From contig JAQBWB010000001.1 in assembly GCA_027623355.1 (NCBI GenBank), forward strand, positions 1 through 36,984: 36,984 nt of DNA, read 5' to 3'. A program made the translations under genes and the position numbers. Source of the stretch: Nanobdellota archaeon (GTDB lineage: Archaea; Nanobdellota; Nanobdellia; Woesearchaeales; JACPBV01). Below, piece after piece: positions 4,016 to 36,984 of the stretch; the stretch's first letter is position 1; the number at the start of each line of letters is the position of its first letter. A model generated the notes under the pieces. That model was given only the letters and a program-made list of their open reading frames with translations, was not told the DNA's origin and did no database searches.

Positions 4016-4158
4016 TAGAGTTCCAGAGAATACTTATATTTTTTGTGACACTGAACCACCTGGGTGCGGTACAGGTTGCACCGATGAGTGTATGTCAGGT
4101 GGCAGTCAAGCTTGTTGTACGAAAATAAAACAATAGTTCTTAATTACTTTGTATTTTT

Positions 4159-4327
4159 GTATGTGTATAGCATAGTCACTAGCGTTCGTAGGCTGCTAAA
4201 GCAACCATCTTCGAAATTCCTGAGATTATTCCTTGAAGGTGCTGCGTCCCCGGGGGGGTCGACCCCTCGCAACGCACCTGCTTGTGAAAGGTGAAAGAAT
4301 TTCTACCTTAGGATGCTATGCACATAC
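4159..4327 (+). mobile_element. MITE-like element, copy B (full length, 169 nt)
   Basis: TIRs gtatgtgtatagcat / atgctatgcacatac, with one G-T position. Flanked by a perfect 8-bp direct duplication gtattttt (4151-4158 and 4328-4335). Lies between the convergent 3' ends of ORF 2870 and proS. Confidence 0.9.
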
Positions 4328-4359
4328 GTATTTTTTTGCTTTTTTATTTGGGGTGTTAT

Positions 4360-7455: not shown

Positions 7456-9398
7456 GTAAACCACTTGAGATGAGCAAGGTTACGCTTTTTGCTCTGCAGA
7501 AAGAGAGGAGTTCTTTATTAAGCGAGATTCAGTCCTTAGGAGTATTGCAACCGGTTGAGATTAAGCGCGATGCAGTCGAGGAATTAGAGAAACCTAAACA
7601 GATTACCTCGATAAAGGAGGTTGCCGATACATTGATTGGTGTCTCTCGAATGGTTCGTATTTTGAAGTTGGCTCCTAGAAAAACTGACATGGTTCAAAAT
7701 GTTTTGGGCTTAGAATTATTAGACAAAAGAAAGGTTGAGAGGAAAAATGATGCTGAAGTTATCAAAGGTGCTCAAACATTTTTAGAGGCCCATGAAACTT
7801 CATTAATTACGCTTGAGATCGAATATACTACTCTTGTTGAGGAGGAAGATGAGTTGAATACTCATAAACAAGTTATTGAACAGCTTTCTGCTTTAGGCGT
7901 TCCGTTATCTGAACTTGCGGATACGGACAAACTGGGCATTCTTATTGCTCGAGTTCCCGTTGAACAGGCTGCAGTTCTTAGGACTGCCTTGGAATCGAAA
8001 AAGACGGTTGCATTTGAGATGAATGCACTTTCTAAAAAGGAATATATAGTTACCCTTATTTCTTTACAGCGATTATTACTTGATTCCACTACTTTATTGA
8101 AACAGCAGGGGGCTTCAATTCTTAGCTTACCTACATGGGCTTTAAAGGAGCATCCCGGTAGGTACATTAAGTCTCAATTGACCGAGGTTAGCGATAAGAA
8201 AAAGGCAGTTATTGAAAGAATCGCTAAACATGCTAAGTCGCTATTCGAGGATGCCGTTATTTTTAGAGAGGAGTTGGAGATTGTTAAGAATAGATTGGAA
8301 ACGGTGCATAAGATGCTTGATTCTTCTAGCTTTTTTGTGATGCAGGGATGGATTGCTACTAAAGACGCAAATCATTTTGAGGAGAAGATAACGAAAAAGA
8401 TTGATGCGGTTAGTGTGCTTGTGGAGGAACCTTCTAAGGATGATGTTGTGCCAGTAGCATTACAAAACAGGAAATCTTTGAAACCGTTTGAGATGCTTAC
8501 AGAACTTTATGCATTGCCAAAATATGGTGATTTAGATCCTACTTTTATTGTTGGTCCTTTATTCTTGATTTTTGCAGCATTCATGTTGACGGATGCAGTG
8601 TATGGATTAGGACTCGTATTACTTGGAGCCATTATTCTAAAGAAATTTGCAAAATATGATGAAGGATTGAAGCAGATTGGTATTATTATTGCTGGAATGG
8701 GTAGTTTGACTGTTTTATTCGGGGTATTAACCGGATCGTACTTTGGTGATTTACCTAAGTATTTCTTTGGTGTATCGTCTGAACAGCTTGCATTTTGGAA
8801 AGATCCTCTTGCTGATCCGTTGTATTTTCTGATTTTATCTATTTCGGTTGCGATCCTTTACTTGAACATTGGTTTCGTTCTTGGTATGATGGAGGATTTG
8901 CGCAAGAAGGATTACAAAACGATGGTTAAGGACAGAATATTATGGTTTTTGTTGCAAATTGGTATTGCTTTGCTTGTTTTGAAGTTTAATCCTCCTCTTT
9001 TATTTGGTGTGGGTTTAGCTACCTTGATTATTGCTGCTGCGGTGATTGGAATAGTTGTGATGCATGGTCCGCTTGGTTTACTAGGAATCTCTGGATTAAT
9101 GGGCGATATGATATCGTTTTCTAGATTATTTGCGTTGTCGTTATCAACAGCAGGCATTGCACTTGCGGTTAACTTGCTTGCTAACTTAGTAAGTGAGGTT
9201 CCTTATGTGGGTTTATTACTAGCCGTACTTATCTTTTTGATTGGTCACGCATTTGGTTTTGTTATGAACTCTATTGGAAGTTTTGTACACGCGTTACGAT
9301 TGCAATTTGTTGAATTTTTCGGTAGATTTTATGAGGGTGGCGGAGATAAATTTTCGCCACTAAAAGAGGAACGCTTCTATTCGGAGGTCGAGGAATGA
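7452..9398 (+). CDS. atpI: A-type ATP synthase subunit I (stator a-subunit homolog)
   Basis: 648 aa with a soluble N-terminal half and a polytopic C-terminal half that includes the conserved Arg region (FSRLFALSLS). ATGA overlap with atpH. Confidence 0.9.
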   Translation: MSKPLEMSKVTLFALQKERSSLLSEIQSLGVLQPVEIKRDAVEELEKPKQITSIKEVADTLIGVSRMVRILKLAPRKTDMVQNVLGLELLDKRKVERKNDAEVIKGAQTFLEAHETSLITLEIEYTTLVEEEDELNTHKQVIEQLSALGVPLSELADTDKLGILIARVPVEQAAVLRTALESKKTVAFEMNALSKKEYIVTLISLQRLLLDSTTLLKQQGASILSLPTWALKEHPGRYIKSQLTEVSDKKKAVIERIAKHAKSLFEDAVIFREELEIVKNRLETVHKMLDSSSFFVMQGWIATKDANHFEEKITKKIDAVSVLVEEPSKDDVVPVALQNRKSLKPFEMLTELYALPKYGDLDPTFIVGPLFLIFAAFMLTDAVYGLGLVLLGAIILKKFAKYDEGLKQIGIIIAGMGSLTVLFGVLTGSYFGDLPKYFFGVSSEQLAFWKDPLADPLYFLILSISVAILYLNIGFVLGMMEDLRKKDYKTMVKDRILWFLLQIGIALLVLKFNPPLLFGVGLATLIIAAAVIGIVVMHGPLGLLGISGLMGDMISFSRLFALSLSTAGIALAVNLLANLVSEVPYVGLLLAVLIFLIGHAFGFVMNSIGSFVHALRLQFVEFFGRFYEGGGDKFSPLKEERFYSEVEE

Positions 9399-12300
9399 TT
9401 TTCGGTAGTGGACTTGTTGTTAGTGAAAGTATCGTTCAATCGATCTTAAGTCCGGTTTTGGATATTTCTACTACTGTTTCTACTGGAGGGGTTGCTAATG
9501 CAACTGCTACTGTACTTACTAATGCTTCGGCAGTACTTGTTGAACATAGCTCTACGTTTTTGGGTCTTGATTTTTCTGGTATTGATGGAAAATCACTTGC
9601 GATTATTGGTGCTGCTATTGCTGTTAGTGCCGCTGGTATTGCATCTGCGGTTGGAGCTGGGATTGTGGGTGCTACTGGAGCTAAGGAGGCCGCTGAGGAT
9701 CCTAAGCGCTTTTCTACTGCTTTATTGTTTCAGGCATTGCCTCAGACACAAGGTATTTATGGATTTTTGATTGCTATTCTTATTTTATTGGGTGCTGGAT
9801 TGATTGGTGCTGCTAAGGAGATTACGATTGCACAGGGACTTGGTTCGGTTGGAGCTGGATTGGCTGTTGGAATCGCTTCTGTTTCTGCTATTGGGCAGGG
9901 TCTCGCTGCATCAGCTGGTATCGGTGCTACCTCTCGTGATAAAAAGATGTTTGGTAAATCTATTCTGTTTTCAGTCTTGCCGGAGACACAGGCATTGTAT
10001 GGATTTTTGATTGCTATTTTGATACTCGTTGGCTTTGGTATGTTTGGTTCGGCTCCCGTTGACATTTCTATTGGTGCTGGTTGGGCTGCTATAGGTGCAG
10101 GTCTTGCTATTGGGATTGCAGGTATTTCTGCTATTGGGCAGGGTACTGCTGCTGCATCTGCTATTGGTGCTGTTTTAGAAAAATCAAAATCTTTTGGAAA
10201 GGCTATTATTTTTGCAGTATTACCTGAGACACAGGCATTGTATGGATTCATTATCGCTATTCTTATTTTAATTGGATTTGGTATTCTTGGTGCTGGAACA
10301 ACAACTGTTTCGTTTGGAGTTGCCTTATTTGCTATTGGTGCAGGTTTATCGGTTGGACTAGGTGCTGTTTCTGCTATTGGGCAGGGTATTGCTGCTAGTG
10401 CTGGTATTGAAGCTGTTGCTAAGAGTGATAAGTCGTTTGGAAAGGCTATTTTGTTTTCAGTCTTACCGGAAACACAGGCATTGTATGGTTTTTTGATTGC
10501 TATTTTGTTGTTAGTTGGCGCTGGCGTATTAGGTGCCGCTAAGGCAGGTATTACTACAGCTATGGGGGTTGTTGCTATTGGTGCTGGCCTTGCTGCAGGA
10601 GTTGCTGGTATTTCTGCTATTGGGCAGGGAATTGCTGCTGCATCTGGAATTTCTGTTGTTACTGCGAAACCTAAATTGTTTGGAAAAGCTATACTTTTTT
10701 CAGTCTTGCCGGAGACACAGGCATTGTATGGATTTTTGATTGCTATTCTTTTACTTGTTGGAGGCGGTATTTTGGGTGCTGCAAAAGCAGGATTATCTAT
10801 TCACGTTGGTTTAATTGCTATTGGTGCTGGTTTGGCAACTGGACTTGCTGCTGTATCTGCATTAGGTCAGGGGATTGCTGCTAGCGCGGGTATCGAAGCT
10901 GTTGGTCGAGATGAGAAGTCTTTTGGTAAGTCGATTTTATTTTCGGTTCTTCCTGAGACACAGGCATTGTATGGATTTTTGATTGCTATTTTATTATTAG
11001 TTGGAGGCGGTTTATTAGGGGCTGTTAAGACAGGATTGAACATGTCTGTTGGCTTGATTGCTATTGGTTCTGGATTGGCAACTGGACTTGCTGCTGTATC
11101 TGCATTAGGTCAGGGGATTGCTGCTGCATCTGGATTGCGTGAAACTGCTAAGGATCCTAAGGCTTTTGGTAAGTCGATTTTGTTTTCAGTCTTGCCGGAG
11201 ACACAGGCATTGTATGGATTTTTGATTGCTATTTTATTATTAGTTGGTGGAGGTATCCTTGGAGGTAACTCTTCAAGTGGTTTAACCTCTGGAGTTGGTC
11301 TTGTTGGAATTGGAGCAGGTATTGCTGTTGGTTTAGCTGCAGTTTCAGCTATCGGACAGGGTATTGCTGCTGCAAGTGGTGTTAGTGCTACTGCTAAAGA
11401 TGGTAAGATGTTTGGAAAATCTATTTTGTTTTCAGTCTTGCCTGAAACTCAGGCATTGTATGGATTTTTGATTGCTGTTTTATTTATGATTGGAGGAGGA
11501 TTATTTGGTGCTGTAGAGGTTGGCATTACCACTCCGGTTGGACTTATTGTTATTGGAGCTAGCTTAGCTGTTGGGATTGCAGGTATTTCTGCTATTGGAC
11601 AGGGTATTGCTGCGGCTTCTGGAATTGATGCTGTTGCTAAAAATGAGAAGTCGTTTGGAAAGGCTATTTTGTTTTCAGTCTTGCCGGAAACACAGGCATT
11701 GTATGGATTCTTAGTTGCTATTCTTTTATTAGTTGGAGGAGGATTATTAGGAGCAGTTAAACAGGGCATTAGCTTATCTGTTGGATTGGTTGCGATTGGG
11801 GCTGGTTTATCGGCTGGACTTGCTGCTGTATCTGCATTAGGACAGGGTTTCGCTGCTTCGGCTGGATTAGCAGCTACTGCACGTAATCCTAAATCTTTTG
11901 GTAAGTCGATACTCTTTTCAGTTCTTCCTGAAACTCAGGCTTTGTATGGATTTTTGATTGCTATTTTATTATTAGTTGGTGGCGGTATCTTAGGTGCAAC
12001 AAGCACTGGATTGTCTGTAGGTATTGGTTTAGTTGCGGTTGGAGCTGGATTAGCAGTTGGATTGAGTGCGTTCTCTGCTGTTGGGCAGGGGATTGTTGCT
12101 AGTACTGCTGCGGATGTTGTTAGTAACAACGAGAAGTCTTTTGGTAAGTCGATTCTATTTTCAGTACTGCCTGAAACACAGGCATTGTATGGATTTTTGA
12201 TTGCTATTTTGTTGATTGCATCAGGTGGATTGATTGGTGCTGCAGCTGGCGAGATTCCGATGTCTATTGGTTTAGTTGCGGTTGGAGCAGGACTTTCTGT

Positions 12301-12724
12301 TGGAATTGCCGGCTTATCGGCTGTTGGACAGGGAATTGCTGCTGCTTCTGGTGTCGGATCGATTGCTGAAAAAGAGAATGTCTTTGGTAAATCTATTTTG
12401 TTTTCAGTCTTGCCGGAGACACAGGCATTGTATGGAATTATTATTGCGGTGTTATTATTAACTGGAGTCGGTTTACTAGGTACTTTGAAGACCGGCATTA
12501 CACTAGTACAGGGATTAGGGGGAGTTGGTGTAGGACTTACCATGGGACTTGCAGCAGTTAGTGCTGTGGGTCAGGGAATAGTGTCTGCTTCATCGATTGG
12601 TGGGGTGGTTAGAGACAATAAGAGTACGGGGAAGAGCTTGGTATTAAGCGTTATTCCCGAGACGTATGCAATATTTGGATTATTGATAGCAATACTTTTG
12701 CTTATTGGATTACAACTGATATAG
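9395..12724 (+). CDS. atpK: A-type ATP synthase proteolipid subunit K, 13 fused hairpins (26 predicted TM helices)
   Basis: The motif GQG...FGK(S/A)ILFSVLPETQALYGF repeats at an 81-aa period. Helix-2 carboxylates are E197, 278, 359, 440, 521, 602, 684, 765, 846, 927, 1008 and 1089. Hairpin 1 has Q117 instead. ATGA overlap with atpI. Confidence 0.9.
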   Translation: MIFGSGLVVSESIVQSILSPVLDISTTVSTGGVANATATVLTNASAVLVEHSSTFLGLDFSGIDGKSLAIIGAAIAVSAAGIASAVGAGIVGATGAKEAAEDPKRFSTALLFQALPQTQGIYGFLIAILILLGAGLIGAAKEITIAQGLGSVGAGLAVGIASVSAIGQGLAASAGIGATSRDKKMFGKSILFSVLPETQALYGFLIAILILVGFGMFGSAPVDISIGAGWAAIGAGLAIGIAGISAIGQGTAAASAIGAVLEKSKSFGKAIIFAVLPETQALYGFIIAILILIGFGILGAGTTTVSFGVALFAIGAGLSVGLGAVSAIGQGIAASAGIEAVAKSDKSFGKAILFSVLPETQALYGFLIAILLLVGAGVLGAAKAGITTAMGVVAIGAGLAAGVAGISAIGQGIAAASGISVVTAKPKLFGKAILFSVLPETQALYGFLIAILLLVGGGILGAAKAGLSIHVGLIAIGAGLATGLAAVSALGQGIAASAGIEAVGRDEKSFGKSILFSVLPETQALYGFLIAILLLVGGGLLGAVKTGLNMSVGLIAIGSGLATGLAAVSALGQGIAAASGLRETAKDPKAFGKSILFSVLPETQALYGFLIAILLLVGGGILGGNSSSGLTSGVGLVGIGAGIAVGLAAVSAIGQGIAAASGVSATAKDGKMFGKSILFSVLPETQALYGFLIAVLFMIGGGLFGAVEVGITTPVGLIVIGASLAVGIAGISAIGQGIAAASGIDAVAKNEKSFGKAILFSVLPETQALYGFLVAILLLVGGGLLGAVKQGISLSVGLVAIGAGLSAGLAAVSALGQGFAASAGLAATARNPKSFGKSILFSVLPETQALYGFLIAILLLVGGGILGATSTGLSVGIGLVAVGAGLAVGLSAFSAVGQGIVASTAADVVSNNEKSFGKSILFSVLPETQALYGFLIAILLIASGGLIGAAAGEIPMSIGLVAVGAGLSVGIAGLSAVGQGIAAASGVGSIAEKENVFGKSILFSVLPETQALYGIIIAVLLLTGVGLLGTLKTGITLVQGLGGVGVGLTMGLAAVSAVGQGIVSASSIGGVVRDNKSTGKSLVLSVIPETYAIFGLLIAILLLIGLQLI
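9587..12721 (+). repeat. 13 in-frame tandem units of about 243 nt, one proteolipid hairpin each
   Basis: Regular 80-82 codon spacing of the PET motif. Several units share identical stretches of 40 nt or more, such as ttttcagtcttgccggagacacaggcattgtatggatttttgattgctatt. Confidence 0.9.
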
Positions 12725-14319: not shown

Positions 14320-14450
14320 ATGGAAATATCACTCAATGGGCATCTTCGAAATCCAGATTGTCTATTTGAAGGCTCTGTGGCCCGGATGGCACAACCCCTA
14401 CGACGAGCTGGCAGTCATTCATTGAAGGATTTCGACTTTAGGATGCTTGA
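14320..14450 (+). repeat. MITE-related structured intercistronic element, copy F (no TIRs)
   Basis: Shares catcttcgaaat..., cccgga.gg....acccc and atttcgac.ttaggatgct blocks with the MITE core. Helices 14346-14354/14427-14435, 14371-14375/14405-14409 and 14376-14379/14399-14402 are maintained. It also forms a 51-codon ORF, 14320-14475. Confidence 0.7.
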
Positions 14451-14465
14451 TTGGGAGATGATATC

Positions 14466-14759
14466 ATGGAAATAGGAATACTCGCGGATCAGGATACCTT
14501 GATGGGCTTTAGGGTAGCGGGAGTTACGCGAAGTGTGTTGTTTGATCTTGAAACGTTGAAGGAGGATTTGAAACAGCTGGATGATGTTGCTATTTTATTG
14601 GTTACTGAAAAAATAGGAATAGAAATTAGAAAATTAGATGTTACGATTTCACCTGTATTAGTTGGTGTACCTGATAAAGGTGGAAGTACAGGGAATGCGT
14701 TATTAGAGATTGCTAAACTTTACGAAGAGGCAATCGGTGTAAAACTCAAGGAAAAATAG
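14466..14759 (+). CDS. atpF: A-type ATP synthase subunit F
   Basis: MEIGILADQDTLMGFRVAGV is a typical F-subunit N-terminus. ATG 14466 is preferred over TTG 14451. Confidence 0.85.
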   Translation: MEIGILADQDTLMGFRVAGVTRSVLFDLETLKEDLKQLDDVAILLVTEKIGIEIRKLDVTISPVLVGVPDKGGSTGNALLEIAKLYEEAIGVKLKEK

Positions 14760-16532: not shown

Positions 16533-17911
16533 GTAAAGGCGTAGAGTATACTAGCATTCGTGAAATTGCAGGACCTCTTTTAATTGTAGAAGATGTAGAC
16601 GGTATTGCGTTTGGTGAACTTGTTGAAATCAAGTTAGATAATGGTGACAAACGAACTGGCCAGGTTTTAGAGGCTCGAGATGATTTAGCTGTTATTCAGG
16701 TGTTTGAAGGAACTCGTGATTTGGCAACTAAGGGTATCTCGGTGCGATTTACTGGTGAAACTATGAAGGTTGGCTTATCGAAGGATATCATTGGACGTAT
16801 CTTCAATGGAGTTGGAAAACCTATCGATGGTGGACCGGCAATTATTCCTGAGAAGCGAGTAGATGTTAATGGACTTCCCATTAATCCAACGGCGCGAGAA
16901 TTTCCGGACGAATTTATTCAAACAGGTATTTCAACAATTGATGTGATGAATACTTTGGTTAGAGGACAGAAACTGCCTATCTTTTCTGAAGCAGGATTGC
17001 CGCACAACGAGCTAGCCGCTCAGATTGCGCGTCAGGCTAAGGTGAAGGGAGATGGTGGAAACTTTGCTGTTGTATTTGCAGCTATGGGAATTACGTTCGA
17101 GGAAAGTCAGTTTTTCATGAAGGACTTTGAAAGAACTGGAGCCATTGAAAATATGGTTGCTTTCATTAACTTAGCAGATGATCCAGCAATTGAGCGTATC
17201 ATTACGCCTAGAATTGCTTTATCGGCTGCTGAGTATCTTGCGTTTGAACACGATATGCATATTCTGGTTATCTTAACGGATATGACCAATTATTGTGAAG
17301 CATTGCGAGAGATTGCAGCAGCTCGAAACGAGATTCCTGGAAGACGAGGATATCCGGGATACATGTATACAGATCTTGCTATGAATTACGAACGTGCAGG
17401 TAAAATCAAGGGTAAAAAAGGATCTGTAACTCAGATTCCTATCTTGACGATGCCGCAGGGAGATATTTCTCACCCGATTCCGGACTTGACGGGATATATT
17501 ACTGAAGGGCAGATTGTTCTCTCCAAGGAACTTCATACCAAAGGTATCTATCCTCCGATTAATCCGTTGCCCTCTTTATCACGTTTGATGAATGAGGGTA
17601 TTGGTAAAGGTAAGACACGAGATGACCACGCAGGTGTATCGAACCAGCTGTATACGGTGTATGCAGAGGGAAGCGAACTGCGTGATTTGGTTGCTGTTGT
17701 TGGTGAGGAAGCGTTATCGGTTCGAGATAAGCAGTTCTTGGATGGTGCTGAGGCGTTTGAGAGGACGTTTATTACGCAGTCTAAGGACGATAATAGGGAC
17801 ATTGCTGCTTCGCTTACAATTGGTTGGGATATCTTTAAGTTAATCCCGAAAACCGAGCTTAAGAAGCTCAAGCAGGAGCATATCGATAAACATTTGGGAA
17901 AAACTGAATGA
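16529..17911 (+). CDS. atpB: A-type ATP synthase subunit B
   Basis: 460 aa with motifs such as [15 protein letters not shown] and ITEGQI that are conserved in A/V-type B subunits. ATGA overlap with atpA. Confidence 0.97.
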
Positions 17912-18030
17912 ATATGAACGAGCGTCTTCGAAATCTGGAGGGTTTTCTTCAAAGCCCTGTGACCCGGATGGTGCAACCCCCACGACGGGCTAGCATACAT
18001 TCTTTGCAGGATTTCGAACTCAGGACGCTT
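17912..18030 (+). repeat. MITE-related structured intercistronic element, copy G (no TIRs)
   Basis: cgtcttcgaaatc...agccc tgtg acccggatggtgcaacccc cacg ac gggct...ggatttcgaactcaggacgct. The helix layout matches copy F and the MITE core. It also forms a 45-codon ORF, 17908-18045, whose ATG overlaps the atpB stop. Confidence 0.7.
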
Positions 18031-18051
18031 GAGGTGAAGAGGTAAATAATA

Positions 18052-18675: not shown

Positions 18676-18830
18676 TGGCAAAACCTATCCCCATTTGGCT
18701 ACGCTTTCAGAAAGATCCTGTTAAACGAGAGAGGATGTTTAAGGTTCTGTTTTTCTTGATGGTTGGAGTTAATGCGCTGATTGTTATTGGATTCTTGGTG
18801 TTTGTGTTTTTGTTGGTTAAGAGGATATAA
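18675..18830 (+). CDS. Small single-pass membrane protein (51 aa), start overlapping the atpD stop
   Basis: The ATG overlaps the atpD stop (TGATG). Sequence MAKPIPIWLRFQKDPVKRERMFKVLFFLMVGVNALIVIGFLVFVFLLVKRI has a basic N-terminus and one clear TM segment. It falls below the ORF-track size cutoff. Confidence 0.45.
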   Translation: MAKPIPIWLRFQKDPVKRERMFKVLFFLMVGVNALIVIGFLVFVFLLVKRI

Positions 18831-18853
18831 TTCCTTTTTGACTCAAATTAGGC

Positions 18854-19021
18854 GTATGTGCATAGCATAGTCACTAGCGTTCGTAGGCTGCTAAAGCAAC
18901 CATCTTCGAAATTCTCGAAACTATCCATCGAAGGTGCTGCGTCCCCGGAGGGGGCTACCCCTCGCAACGCACCTGCTTTTGAAGGTGAAAGAATTTCGAC
19001 CTTAGGATGCTATGCACATAC
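18854..19021 (+). mobile_element. MITE-like element, copy C (full length, 168 nt)
   Basis: Perfect 15-bp TIRs gtatgtgcatagcat / atgctatgcacatac. Perfect 8-bp TSD aattaggc at 18846-18853 and 19022-19029. Confidence 0.9.
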
Positions 19022-19035
19022 AATTAGGCGTAAAC

Positions 19036-19043
19036 TATATATA
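19036..19043 (+). promoter_or_regulatory. TATA box (tatatata) 22 nt upstream of micro-ORF ATG 19066
   Basis: Shows the same TATA-to-ATG spacing as the housekeeping genes. It starts 14 nt after the end of MITE copy C. Confidence 0.4.
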
Positions 19044-19065
19044 GGAGTTTAGTTTCAATAGCTTT

Positions 19066-19131
19066 ATGAGTAACATTATTATTAAGATTAAGACACTTTC
19101 TACTAGATGTATGACCATGCATTGCTGGTAA
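19066..19131 (+). CDS. Candidate leaderless micro-ORF (21 aa, MSNIIIKIKTLSTRCMTMHCW)
   Basis: The ATG sits at the predicted leaderless TSS position. The only support is promoter geometry. Confidence 0.25.
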   Translation: MSNIIIKIKTLSTRCMTMHCW

Positions 19132-19182
19132 CGGCACCGCATTATCCATTCTCATATAAAAAATTAACACGAGGTGAGCGCT

Positions 19183-19281
19183 ATGAACATACAATATGAA
19201 AACAAAAAAATACGATCGGTAAATGACGAATTTTTCTTTTTTGACGTCAACGACCGAGCTGAATCATTTAAAGATAAATGA
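19183..19281 (+). CDS. Candidate micro-ORF (32 aa, MNIQYENKKIRSVNDEFFFFDVNDRAESFKDK)
   Basis: GAGGTGA lies exactly 5 nt upstream of the ATG. The C-terminal half weakly resembles the micro-ORF at 31738-31815. Confidence 0.35.
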   Translation: MNIQYENKKIRSVNDEFFFFDVNDRAESFKDK

Positions 19282-19291
19282 GGTGAAGTAA

Positions 19292-19387
19292 ATGAATAAA
19301 CTGAATACGGACAAAATGAAGATGAATATTATGAATGAAATGCATACTTATCATTGTACTAGATGTTTTACTCTTACTTCTTTTTAG
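19292..19387 (+). CDS. Candidate micro-ORF (31 aa, Met-rich, with an HCTRC motif)
   Basis: GAGGTGA lies exactly 5 nt upstream of the ATG, 10 nt after the preceding micro-ORF. Confidence 0.3.
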   Translation: MNKLNTDKMKMNIMNEMHTYHCTRCFTLTSF

Positions 19388-23040: not shown

Positions 23041-26100
<3,060 letters not shown>

Positions 26101-31815: not shown

Positions 31816-31861
31816 GCTGGTGGAATAGAGTAGGGGGATGATGCTATGTACAACATAAAAA

Positions 31862-32029
31862 GTATGTGCATAGCATAGTCACTAGCGTTCGTAGGCTGCT
31901 AAAGCAACCATCTTCGAAATTCTCGAAACTATCCATCGAAGGTGCTGTGTCTCCGGAGGGGGCGACCCCTCGCAACGCACCTGCTTCGGAAGGTGAAAGA
32001 ATTTCGACCTTAGGATGCTATGCACATAC
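31862..32029 (+). mobile_element. MITE-like element, copy D (full length, 168 nt)
   Basis: Perfect 15-bp TIRs. The flanking 8-mers cataaaaa (31854-31861) and tataaaaa (32030-32037) match at 7 of 8 positions. It belongs to the same subfamily as copy C. Confidence 0.9.
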
Positions 32030-32045
32030 TATAAAAACAAACATA

Positions 32046-32053
32046 TTTAAATA
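32046..32053 (+). promoter_or_regulatory. TATA box (tttaaata) for leaderless pyrB
   Basis: Lies 23 nt upstream of ATG 32077 and starts 16 nt after the end of MITE copy D. Confidence 0.5.
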
Positions 32054-32076: not shown

Positions 32077-33003
32077 ATGGTTAAAGGATCCTTCAAAGGG
32101 CGTGATGTTCTCTCAATTAGTGATTTTTCTCGTGAAGATTTGTTACACATTTTATCTGTAGCTGGGCAACTTGAGAAAAAGCCAAGACCTGATTTGTTGA
32201 AAGGTAAAATTATGGCTTCCTTGTTCTTTGAACCTAGCACTCGTACTAAACTTAGCTTTGCAGCATCTATGATTAAGCTCGGTGGCCAGGTTATTGGTTT
32301 CGCTGATGTGAGAACTACTTCGGTTAAGAAGGGTGAAACGTTATGGGACACTACAAAAATGGTGGAGGCGTATAGTGATGTCATTGTTACGCGTAATGAT
32401 GTAGAGGGGGCTCCTCGTCTGATGTCGGAGGCTTCTAGCATCCCTGTGGTGAATGCAGGTGACGGGGCTAATCAGCATCCTACGCAGACGTTACTTGATT
32501 TGTATACGATTCAAAAGGAACATGGGTCGTTTGACGGCATGACCATTGGTTTTGTTGGAGATCTTAAATATGGGCGGACGGTGCATAGTTTGGCTGTCGC
32601 ACTGAGTCATTTTAAATGTAGTATGCACTTTGTTGCTCCTGCTGCGTTGAAGATGCCTGATTCTTACATTACGATGCTTAAGGAGAAGGGCATAACGGTT
32701 GAAGAAACTGATGATTTGGATGCAGCGTGCAAGCATTTTGATGTGCTGTATATGACTCGTATCCAGGAGGAGCGTTTTCCCGACCCAATAGAGTATCAAA
32801 AGTATAAGTCGGTGTATAAGATTGATAAGCGAGTACTTGAGTTGTGCAAGGAATCGGTAAAAATCATGCATCCGTTGCCACGAGTAGGCGAGATTGATCC
32901 GAAGATTGATGAAACTCCTAATGCAATCTACTTTAAGCAGGCTGCTAACGGCATACCTGTTCGTCAGGCGATCTTAGCGTTGGTGTTGGGTGAGTTGGAA
33001 TGA
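32077..33003 (+). CDS. pyrB: Aspartate carbamoyltransferase catalytic chain
   Basis: FFEPSTRTKLSF, HPTQTLLD and MHPLPRV motifs. ATG 32077 is preferred over TTG 32074 on promoter spacing. Confidence 0.95.
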   Translation: MVKGSFKGRDVLSISDFSREDLLHILSVAGQLEKKPRPDLLKGKIMASLFFEPSTRTKLSFAASMIKLGGQVIGFADVRTTSVKKGETLWDTTKMVEAYSDVIVTRNDVEGAPRLMSEASSIPVVNAGDGANQHPTQTLLDLYTIQKEHGSFDGMTIGFVGDLKYGRTVHSLAVALSHFKCSMHFVAPAALKMPDSYITMLKEKGITVEETDDLDAACKHFDVLYMTRIQEERFPDPIEYQKYKSVYKIDKRVLELCKESVKIMHPLPRVGEIDPKIDETPNAIYFKQAANGIPVRQAILALVLGELE

Positions 33004-35809: not shown

Positions 35810-36871
35810 TTACTTCTTTTTCACAGGATCTAGATGTACGTCTACCTGCGGGAAGGGGATTTTTATTTTGTTTTTATTCAATGTATCGTAAATTTTGCAA
35901 TTGAGATCTTCTTTTGTTGAGAATCTGTCCTTATAGGATGTTATCCATACGTAGGCTTTGAAATTTAGGGATGACTCTGCCATTTCTAGGAACATGACTT
36001 TGGGTTCGTTTTCTTTGTCTAGGTTTTTTAGTTTGCTTATTTTTTCTAGTACTATCTTCTTTATTTTATTGATGTTGTTTCCGTAGGCAACTGAAAACGG
36101 GATGATGATTCTTGCTTTTGGGTTTGGTAGAACATAATTAAGGATGACTTCGTTTGCTAGCTCTCCATTGGGGATGATTTTTACTTCGTTGTCCCATGTT
36201 CTTATTCTTGTGGCTCGTAAGCCTATGTCTATTACTTCTCCGTAGGTATCGGTTCCAATTTTGATTACGTCTCCTACACGCACGCTTCGATCTGCAATGA
36301 TGGAGATTCCTCCGAAGATGTTTCCAAGTGTTTTTTGTAGTCCGAAGGCGATTGCTACTCCTAGGACTCCTATGGATGCTAATAATGGACCTACTTCGAC
36401 GCCCCAGATTTGTAGGATGAACATGCCTGCTACAATAATTGTGATGAAGCGACTTGCTTTGTGGCCTAGACTGAGGATTTGATCGTCTGCTTTAGAATCG
36501 GTTGCTGCCGTTAATCTTTTGCCCCAGTGTTCGATAACAAGGTCTAGAAAAATTACGATGATGAAGGAGGTGATGATTACGGTAATTGAGGAGAATGTTT
36601 TTTGTAGCCCGGAGGTTATTGCTGGAGCAAGTTTTAGTGGTAGAATTGCTAGTTTTGTTCCGAAGAAAAGGATGAGAAGTGCTACTGGGACTTCTGACTG
36701 CTTGATTAACTTATCATCAAACGTGGTTTTTGTTTTTGCTGCTAATTTTGAAAGATACTTTGTGAAGATTTTGTATGCAATTTTTGCTATAACGAAAAAG
36801 ATGACTAATGTGGCTAGAGCTACAAGATATTTATTTGAAAGAATACTTTGTGCTACTGCGTTTAGAGGCAT
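35810..36871 (-). CDS. Small-conductance mechanosensitive channel (MscS family)
   Basis: The N-terminal region is hydrophobic. The pore helix plus beta domain follow (GVAIAFGLQKTLGNIFGGISIIADRSVRVGDVIKIG...GEVIDIGLRATRIRTWDN). 353 aa. Confidence 0.9.
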   Translation of the reverse strand: MPLNAVAQSILSNKYLVALATLVIFFVIAKIAYKIFTKYLSKLAAKTKTTFDDKLIKQSEVPVALLILFFGTKLAILPLKLAPAITSGLQKTFSSITVIITSFIIVIFLDLVIEHWGKRLTAATDSKADDQILSLGHKASRFITIIVAGMFILQIWGVEVGPLLASIGVLGVAIAFGLQKTLGNIFGGISIIADRSVRVGDVIKIGTDTYGEVIDIGLRATRIRTWDNEVKIIPNGELANEVILNYVLPNPKARIIIPFSVAYGNNINKIKKIVLEKISKLKNLDKENEPKVMFLEMAESSLNFKAYVWITSYKDRFSTKEDLNCKIYDTLNKNKIKIPFPQVDVHLDPVKKK

Positions 36872-36893: not shown

Positions 36894-36901
36894 TTTAAAA
36901 A
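36894..36901 (-). promoter_or_regulatory. TATA box (tttttaaa on the - strand) for the leaderless MscS gene
   Basis: Lies 22 nt upstream of ATG 36871. It ends 14 nt from the left end of MITE copy E. Confidence 0.5.
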
Positions 36902-36915
36902 TGTTCCTAAGAAGT

Positions 36916-36984
36916 GTATGTGAATAGCATAGTCACTAGCGTTCGTAGGCTGCTAAAGCAACCATCTTCGAAATTCCTGAGATT
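36916..36984 (+). mobile_element. MITE-like element, copy E (5' 69 nt only, truncated by window end)
   Basis: gtatgtgaatagcatagtcactagcgttcgtaggctgctaaagcaaccatcttcgaaattcctgagatt matches the left part of copy B, including the cctgagatt subfamily signature. Confidence 0.85.

Follow-up and report, generated by a model that had tools for sequence, protein, structure and literature searches.

Repeated elements in the contig

The window described here, meaning the whole stretch of DNA that was analysed, is one entire contig of 36,984 bp (JAQBWB010000001.1) from an uncultivated DPANN archaeon, and it contains several copies of a short repeat with the features of a MITE (miniature inverted-repeat transposable element). 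There are five copies of the form that we refer to as type Ia, all of them on the + strand. Three are full length: copy B (coordinates 4159–4327; 169 nt) is located between convergent YdjM-like and prolyl-tRNA synthetase (ProRS) genes, copy C (18854–19021; 168 nt) lies at a site that is empty in relatives, and copy D (31862–32029; 168 nt), which is 97% identical to copy C, lies upstream of pyrB. The remaining two are cut by the ends of the contig: copy A (1–67) comprises the 3’ 67 nt of the element, as identified by alignment and by an nhmmer match to model positions 103–168 (E=3e-20), and copy E (36916–36984) comprises the 5’ 69 nt and adjoins an MscS gene. An earlier reading made from the DNA alone (the sequence-only reading) had placed three full and two truncated copies at these coordinates, and both the sequence and the nhmmer matches bear it out. 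The two subfamilies that it recognised are also real, with copies A, B and E (subfamily 1) and copies C and D (subfamily 2) sharing 97–99% identity within and ~91% identity between the groups. The G+C content of the repeat is 49–51%, compared with 40% for the whole contig.

The 15 bp terminal inverted repeats (TIRs), GTATGTGCATAGCAT and ATGCTATGCACATAC, are exact reverse complements in copies C and D. The sequence-only reading had described the ends as exact reverse complements; copies B and E each have one mismatch in the 5’ TIR (GTATGTGTATAGCAT and GTATGTGAATAGCAT respectively). With up to three mismatches allowed, ten TIR matches are found where 0.72 are expected. The 8 bp target-site duplications (TSDs) that had been proposed for the three full copies are correct: copy B is flanked by GTATTTTT on each side (4151–4158 and 4328–4335; 8/8), copy C by AATTAGGC (18846–18853 to its left; 8/8), and copy D by CATAAAAA (31854–31861) and TATAAAAA (7/8). 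Copy E is complete in another assembly (L040), where both of its TSDs are TAAGAAGT (8/8). The open reading frames (ORFs) inside the elements are short and contain no Pfam domain, and because the open frames differ between element types we regard them as incidental. As had been stated, the window has no transposase gene: none of its 29 ORFs (all non-overlapping ORFs of at least 100 aa) has a transposase domain recognised by Pfam. A tRNA-Gln gene is the sole match to Rfam in the window at the gathering threshold. We note that all seven copies of the family in the window, five of type I and two of type II (see below), are on the + strand, for which the two-sided chance is 1/64; marine copies, by contrast, have mixed orientations relative to the neighbouring promoter.

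The ProRS and atpD proteins encoded in the window are on record as ‘MAG: ... [Nanoarchaeota archaeon]’ (MAG, metagenome-assembled genome), and other assemblies of the same organism derive from a Caspian Sea metagenome. One ENA scaffold of this organism covers exactly the interval between copies B and C, ending inside both, and a Logan contig ends in copy B. The window is an entire contig, and the fragments at its two ends, A and E, are therefore assembly breaks within the repeat. Circularity of the contig through copies A and E was considered and rejected, as ~33 nt of the element would be absent; the chromosomal housekeeping genes and the continuation of copy E into other genes in another assembly also rule it out. 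A further copy is at the end of a contig in the GTDB record JAQBTT010000019.1 (L002), named ‘MAG: bacterium isolate casp150-mb.125’. The gene adjoining it (2028–2615) resembles, as read from its translation, that of an archaeal TATA-binding protein (TBP), because of which the ‘bacterium’ label looks wrong. From the protein names in the window and the apparent TBP in L002, the host of the MITE is archaeal.

Mobility of the element

Marine relatives have an ATPase operon with 78–83% nucleotide identity to that of the window and an atpD protein that is 86–87% identical, and in three of them (L012, L013 and L015) the copy C site is empty. In L012 and L015 the empty site reads ...TTTTTCGACTCA AATTCTCC GTAACC TATAAATA TGAG..., with homologous DNA on both sides, and the corresponding window sequence is ...GACTCA AATTAGGC (168 nt) AATTAGGC GTAAAC TATATATA GGAG.... 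The comparison for which the sequence-only reading had called thus reveals a single 8-mer region in the relatives. The element occurs at a syntenic position in none of the relatives’ loci that were fetched, which contradicts the alternative, raised in the same reading, of a conserved RNA gene held at syntenic positions. At the copy B site, an 88%-identical relative has overlapping YdjM and ProRS genes and no insert, and this is not a clean empty site; a search for an empty site through ProRS relatives at 71–73% identity found that synteny is not conserved.

Two further observations concern the surroundings of copy C. Directly upstream of its target (18830–18853) the window lacks ~290–460 nt that are present in L015 (10774–11070) and L012 (10779–11235), with a 119-aa ORF falling within the L012 stretch. 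The difference could have arisen through loss of DNA from the window next to the insertion site or through a gain of DNA by the relatives. To its right, window positions 19029–19292 are 82–88% conserved in the relatives and lie behind a canonical BRE/TATA arrangement (see below), and contain only tiny ORFs (such as one of 21 aa from 19066); this segment may be a gene for a small protein or a non-coding RNA.

A degenerate pattern derived from the family’s conserved positions was used to scan JGI metagenomes and identified 18 loci. At most of these there is a 134-nt element whose termini are the same (GTATGTGCATAGCA...TGCTATGCACATAC), and we refer to this element as type Ib. The TIR is exact in all type Ib copies, as it is in copies C and D. 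Seven copies are at unrelated loci and all have 8/8 TSDs (TCAGAATA, AAGATATA, CCTCCCTC, TCTGCTAT, CCTAGTAT, TATTTTTG and GGCGATTT). Eight full type Ib copies were examined, seven of them at distinct loci and the eighth being the copy with mismatched flanks in L018, and because all eight are 100% identical over 134 nt they appear to point to a recent burst. The exceptions with regard to the TSDs are L018, in which the flanks are mixed from two sites, and L025v, which has no TSD. In L018 (JGI Ga0187833_10000054, a 106-kb contig; 1957–2090) a single MITE copy has the 5’ flank that belongs to the AAGATATA site and the 3’ flank that belongs to the ATCTCATC site, as comparison with L026 and L025 reveals. 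Either two copies have recombined here or the assembly is chimeric, and MAGs that contain this repeat call for corresponding caution. More generally, DPANN MAG assemblies are broken up by the repeat, which can also give rise to contigs that are chimeric and to small ORFs that are spurious.

In total, 12 full copies have 8 bp TSDs directly abutting the TIRs: copies B, C and E, the type II copy in L033 and the seven type Ib copies with 8/8 matches, and copy D with 7/8. The element is 134–169 nt long, has no transposase gene, is bounded by TIRs of 14–15 bp and flanked by 8 bp TSDs, and is present in multiple copies with presence/absence polymorphism, as expected of a MITE. The empty site at copy C, the TSDs of copy E and of the seven type Ib copies, and the absence of synteny demonstrate that the element is mobile, in support of the non-autonomous MITE proposed in the sequence-only reading; the flanking duplications on copy E and the type Ib sisters, in particular, extend to further copies what had been seen at three.

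Insertion at the upstream edge of predicted promoters

At most of the flanks the sequence reading outwards from the element has a common layout, with the 8 bp TSD followed by ~6 nt of purine-rich sequence (for example GAAAGC, GAAACA, AAAAAG or GGAACA), a TATA-like 8-mer (for example TTTATATA, TTTAAATA or TTTTTAAA), ~22 nt, and an ATG codon. To the right of copy A (68–89, + strand) the 8-mer TTAGAAAG in the position of the 3’ TSD is followed by AAAATG, which resembles a transcription factor B (TFB) recognition element (BRE), the TATA sequence TTTATAAA, 23 nt, and an ATG at 113. The right flank of copy C (19022–19043, + strand) consists of the 3’ TSD AATTAGGC, the BRE-like GTAAAC and TATATATA, with 22 nt to an ATG at 19066, and that of copy D (32030–32051, + strand) of the 3’ TSD TATAAAAA, the BRE-like CAAACA and TATTTAAA, with 25 nt to the pyrB ATG at 32077. 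Copy E has the same arrangement at its left end on the - strand (36894–36915), with the TSD ACTTCTTA, the BRE-like GGAACA, TTTTTAAA, and 22 nt to the MscS ATG at 36871. Among the type I copies in the window only copy B is not beside a promoter.

This placement was evaluated at 17 independent sites, accepting a TATA 8-mer if it matched in at least 7 of 8 positions. At 15 of the 17 sites (16 flanks) a TATA sequence starts 13–16 nt from the end of the element, and L033 also has one when judged by eye; at 12 sites the offset is exactly 14 nt. The background over 17,688 intergenic positions of the same loci is 5.8% for offsets of 13–16 nt and 1.6% for exactly 14 nt, giving binomial probabilities of ~3e-19 and ~2e-18 respectively. 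The layout is typical of the promoters of these organisms themselves: among 179 ORFs at these loci the spacing from TATA to ATG peaks at 21–23 nt, with a BRE-like consensus (RNAANN) in the 6 nt preceding TATA. Such a geometry fits the BRE/TATA architecture of leaderless archaeal promoters. At copy C the promoter is already present in the empty site of the relatives, and thus predates the insertion. Because the promoter is at the 5’ end of the element ten times and at the 3’ end seven times, orientation is free. Together these comparisons show a strict positional bias of the element at the edges of the predicted promoters.

A conserved hairpin core

Alignment of 12 diverse members reveals a core, common to all subfamilies, with the invariant blocks TTCGAAAT ... 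CTGYG ... CCCGGATGG ... CAACCCC ... ACG-AC ... ATTTCGA, and the core is more conserved across subfamilies than are the termini. The consensus folds as an imperfect hairpin in which 94.2% of the cells are paired, as compared with 31–45% when the partners are slid, and 11 of the 26 core pairs vary at both positions. At columns 48/84, for example, six members have U-A and six have C-G; at 49/83 seven have G-C, three U-A and two C-G; and at 56/66 seven have C-G, four G-C and one A-U. The covariation score is 0.41 against 0.20 for shuffled alignments, and none of 500 shuffles reaches 0.41. Conserved motifs that are not paired include a CGGAU loop, CAACCCC, and a 2-nt AC bulge. The conservation of this core exceeds the palindromy expected of two fused insertion sequence (IS) ends. 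The AC bulge suggested domain 5 of a group II intron or a bulge-helix-bulge splice motif, and both were rejected as the remaining anatomy does not fit. The element has no match in Rfam (Rfam 15) at the gathering threshold, and searches with copy C and element F (see below) at E≤10 returned only noise.

Type II relatives in the ATPase operon

An nhmmer profile made from the three full type Ia copies also matches two segments within the ATPase operon, at 14341–14447 (E=1.8e-8) and 17921–18029 (E=1.3e-5). The elements concerned, F and G, are 77% identical to each other and match only the inner two-thirds of the type Ia MITE, and we refer to them as type II. Element F (14329–14465, + strand; 137 nt), delimited by the nhmmer match, junction alignment and gene tables, is between atpC and atpF. 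Its site is empty in L012, L015, L036, L038 and L039, where atpC and atpF abut or overlap (GTGATATAATGGAAATAGG). The direct repeat ATGGAAATA is on both sides of element F (14320–14328 and 14466–14474, + strand), showing that the insertion duplicated the atpF start; the downstream copy is the functional atpF start codon. Element G (17912–18045, + strand; approximate boundaries) is between atpB and atpD. The relatives have an atpB–atpD spacer of only 41–46 nt that retains the 5’ ~20 nt of G (GAGCGTCTTCGAAATCTGG). G may therefore predate the split and have been largely lost from the relatives, or it may have formed on a spacer that the ancestor already had.

The ENA annotation of the same organism has small ORFs of 51 aa (14320–14475) and 45 aa (17908–18045) over F and G. 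The first is accounted for by the duplicated atpF start, at which this spurious ORF begins. We considered and rejected the possibility that these are real genes of the ATPase operon, as they are not in the relatives, and the open frame of the MITE is a different frame of homologous DNA.

A type II copy in a metagenome (L033) has its own TIRs, GAATTAGGCAT and ATGCTTAATTC, and an 8/8 TSD (AAATGAAA), and further type II members are in other metagenomes. The termini appear recognisably homologous across the subfamilies, with the form GWATKNG(G)CAT. On sequence comparison the family comprises three forms, type Ia (168 nt, Caspian) and type Ib (134 nt, marine), which have the same TIR, and type II (~120–137 nt, with diverged termini). 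Three features had escaped the sequence-only reading: the type II relatives in the ATPase operon, the structure and conservation of the core, and the strictness with which copies are positioned at the upstream edge of BRE/TATA promoters.

Other features of the window include an unusual gene for the A-type ATPase proteolipid (K/c; 9395–12724, + strand), which encodes a protein of 1109 aa with 13 fused ATP-synt_C hairpins and a DNA period of 243 nt. This giant gene is kept in the marine relatives at 1106–1109 aa, and a 13-hairpin proteolipid fusion is known from Methanopyrus kandleri. The gyrB gene (23041–26034, - strand) encodes 997 aa with a match to an intein-splicing domain at residues 491–794; because its orthologues in the marine relatives are only 645–677 aa long, the putative intein seems specific to the window lineage. 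A 15-nt tandem repeat at the 5’ end of gyrB (25845–25964) gives rise to (T/P)SKEP pentapeptides in an acidic N-terminal extension.

Mechanism and alternative explanations

We consider it probable that these elements constitute a non-autonomous MITE family of an uncultivated DPANN archaeon that is moved in trans and inserts at the upstream edge of core promoters. The combination of TIRs and a fixed TSD length, which has an established link to DDE-type transposases, suggests that such an enzyme is responsible. A transposase encoded elsewhere would move the MITE in trans, and a staggered cut of the target by 8 bp would generate the duplications. The 8 bp target would be directly upstream of the BRE of a leaderless promoter, with TATA starting 14 nt from the end of the element, and the transposition complex would be tethered to, or would read, the BRE and TATA box, either as bent DNA or as the TBP/TFB complex. 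Selection in very compact genomes would then remove insertions that land elsewhere. A one-sided landmark with free orientation is the pattern that a symmetric transposition complex would produce on an asymmetric landmark, and because of this fit we favour active targeting of the BRE/TATA region as the probable basis of the placement. In a more specific and tentative proposal, which we put forward as possible, the transposase uses the TBP/TFB-bound or intrinsically bent BRE/TATA region as a tether and inserts one BRE width (6 bp) upstream of TATA in either orientation, with the core as part of the machinery, for example as a module for synapsis or protein recruitment. The core may act in transposition or, alternatively, as an RNA.

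Several points weigh against these proposals. The main caveats are that all of the evidence comes from metagenome assemblies and that promoters and start codons are predicted from the sequence only. Metagenome assembly may collapse repeats or make chimeras of them, as at L018, and the identity of the copies may be overstated. The covariation in the core could arise from a requirement that the arms match, without base pairing, and the folding energies of the two strands do not differ consistently, so that we claim no RNA function. The autonomous partner is missing in the sequences searched, as no pair of TIRs at IS distance is present in 394 kb of fetched loci. No IS-like inverted repeats were found in 12 loci, two leads being coding sequence, and the 33 nt that are extra in type Ia have no other match. 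Among 185,579 species-representative genomes in GTDB the 26-nt 5’ end matches once, at the contig-end MITE in L002. The exact 24–26-nt 5’ end has no match in the JGI metagenomes and none in IMG/VR, two core patterns have none in IMG/VR, and copies sought in ENA and Logan through peptides from the open frames of the element were not found.

The placement at promoters is also open to the explanation that this is an ordinary MITE with random or AT-biased insertion, and that its position reflects survivorship in streamlined DPANN genomes, in which neutral positions would be confined to the short gap that separates one gene from the BRE of the next. The intergenic regions are very short, and purifying selection alone would push many insertions against the BRE. 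Several sites are nearly without free space: the TSD of copy E abuts the stop codon of the upstream L10e gene, L034, whose TATA offsets are 14 and 15, is flanked by two back-to-back promoters, and only ~3 nt are free at L021. That the element can land elsewhere is shown by copy B, which is flanked by convergent genes, and by F and G, which are inside an operon; none of the three is at a promoter. Against survivorship are six sites (L031, L032, L026, L035, and copies C and D of the window) that have from 27 to ~150 nt free and are still exactly at the BRE edge; under a null model of selection only, with insertion uniform over the free intergenic space, the joint probability is ~4e-9, a figure that is approximate as the free-space distances come from simple ORF calls. 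It is on these few sites that the strength of the targeting argument rests. That 12 of 17 sites share a single exact offset also speaks against survivorship, which we judge to be unlikely.

The remaining alternatives concern the nature of the element rather than its position. The functional unit could be the conserved core, used by the host or by the element as a structured RNA or as a DNA hairpin bound by protein, for instance as a regulatory or processing signal, and merely spread by mobility through TIRs and TSDs. This is suggested by the greater conservation of the core than of the termini, by the invariant unpaired motifs between covarying stems, by the predicted co-transcription of F and G in the sense orientation within the ATPase operon, and by the shared strand of all seven window copies. 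We find it rather doubtful, as there is no match in Rfam even at E≤10, no consistent asymmetry in folding energy, and no preferred direction towards the adjacent promoter (10 versus 7); the element is absent from the orthologous sites of close relatives, so that no site needs it, and a transposase binding at the two ends could equally call for matching arms. A conserved small RNA gene, or a palindrome of the REP/PATE type moved by a Y1 (IS200/IS605-like) enzyme, would account for the long stable hairpin (-62 to -70 kcal/mol) and its repetition in intergenic regions. REP, PATE and IS200/IS605 elements have no TIR-defined ends, however, and do not duplicate their targets, and the 12 full copies with 8 bp TSDs directly against the TIRs, the empty sites, and the lack of syntenic conservation and of Rfam matches make both very improbable. 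That the repeat is an assembly or sequencing artefact, derived from adapter or chimeric sequence at contig ends, is brought to mind by the copies at both ends of the window and at other contig ends and by the JGI contig that is chimeric or recombinant across a copy; it is scarcely credible, as independent projects and assemblers (NCBI MAG, ENA, Logan and JGI) have yielded contigs with internal full copies that have unique flanks and TSDs, and a multi-copy element would itself produce contig breaks at repeats. The preferred reading thus remains that of a trans-mobilised MITE that is probably targeted to promoter edges.

Relationship to known elements

The IS families that make 8 bp TSDs include IS6, IS256, ISL3, IS1595, IS66/ISBst12, ISAs1, ISH6, and the ISH1 group of IS5. 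The likeness of the present family to these lies in TSD length and short TIRs, and as 8 bp is common to so many families the sequence-only reading was right that TSD length is insufficient to name the parent. The TIR GTATGTGCATAGCA could be matched to no IS family, although no comparison with the ISfinder library was included. The Correia elements of Neisseria are bacterial, duplicate TA, and carry their own sigma-70 promoters and an IHF site. The present family differs from these in having 8 bp TSDs, no TATA-like promoter inside, and a fixed distance to a pre-existing host promoter. There is nonetheless a likeness, as the Correia (CREE), ERIC/IRU and RUP-type elements are also small TIR-bounded hairpins that are upstream of genes or in operons, are co-transcribed, and are able to alter expression (PMC10969869).

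Among archaeal elements, the MITEs of Sulfolobus (SM1–SM4), Halobacterium and Haloquadratum are, like the present family, short, non-coding, TIR-bounded, TSD-flanked, multi-copy and mobilised in trans; for the Sulfolobus MITEs the parent IS is known, whereas the sequences searched yielded none for the present family. In its positional logic only, the family can be likened to two eukaryotic retroelements. Yeast Ty3 integrates at Pol III start sites through TFIIIB, and Dictyostelium TRE5-A inserts ~48 bp upstream of tRNA genes. By analogy, each would share with our elements a fixed distance from a TBP-containing initiation complex, on the upstream side of the transcription unit, with the gene spared. 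Ty3 and TRE5-A use an integrase or target-primed reverse transcription, whereas the present family is of a prokaryotic, cut-and-paste type, and it is a member of neither the Correia nor the Ty3/TRE5-A group.

A high density of MITEs in a DPANN genome is not new: a 2024 census found the highest archaeal MITE densities in DPANN, with 105 MITEs/Mb in a ‘Woesearchaea’ genome, and also noted an Altiarchaeum genome with 146/Mb (PMC11602168). The five copies in 37 kb of the window imply a density of ~135/Mb, similar to these two values. The archaeal MITEs named in a 2024 review (PMC10969869) are limited to those of Sulfolobus, Halobacterium, Haloquadratum and a few other organisms. The literature searched, which includes PMC11602168 and PMC10969869 and gives incomplete coverage, yielded no account of the family, its shared core or a fixed insertion distance from BRE/TATA.

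A bare MITE would be a modest finding, and it is the placement at promoter edges together with the conserved core that makes this family worth pursuing. DPANN genomes are among the smallest and densest of cellular genomes, yet their MITE densities are among the highest reported. The upstream boundary of the core promoter is the only place at which 130–170 bp can be added without breaking either a gene or a promoter, and this offers an explanation of the density. If promoter tethering is true, it would explain how more than 100 copies per Mb are accommodated in a genome with almost no spare DNA, and would be the first archaeal counterpart of integration in the style of Ty3 and TRE5-A. If active targeting is true, the integration of an archaeal transposon would be guided by the transcription initiation apparatus, the elements would provide natural landmarks for locating promoters in uncultivated archaea, and their insertion may provide a route by which MITEs rewire upstream regulation.

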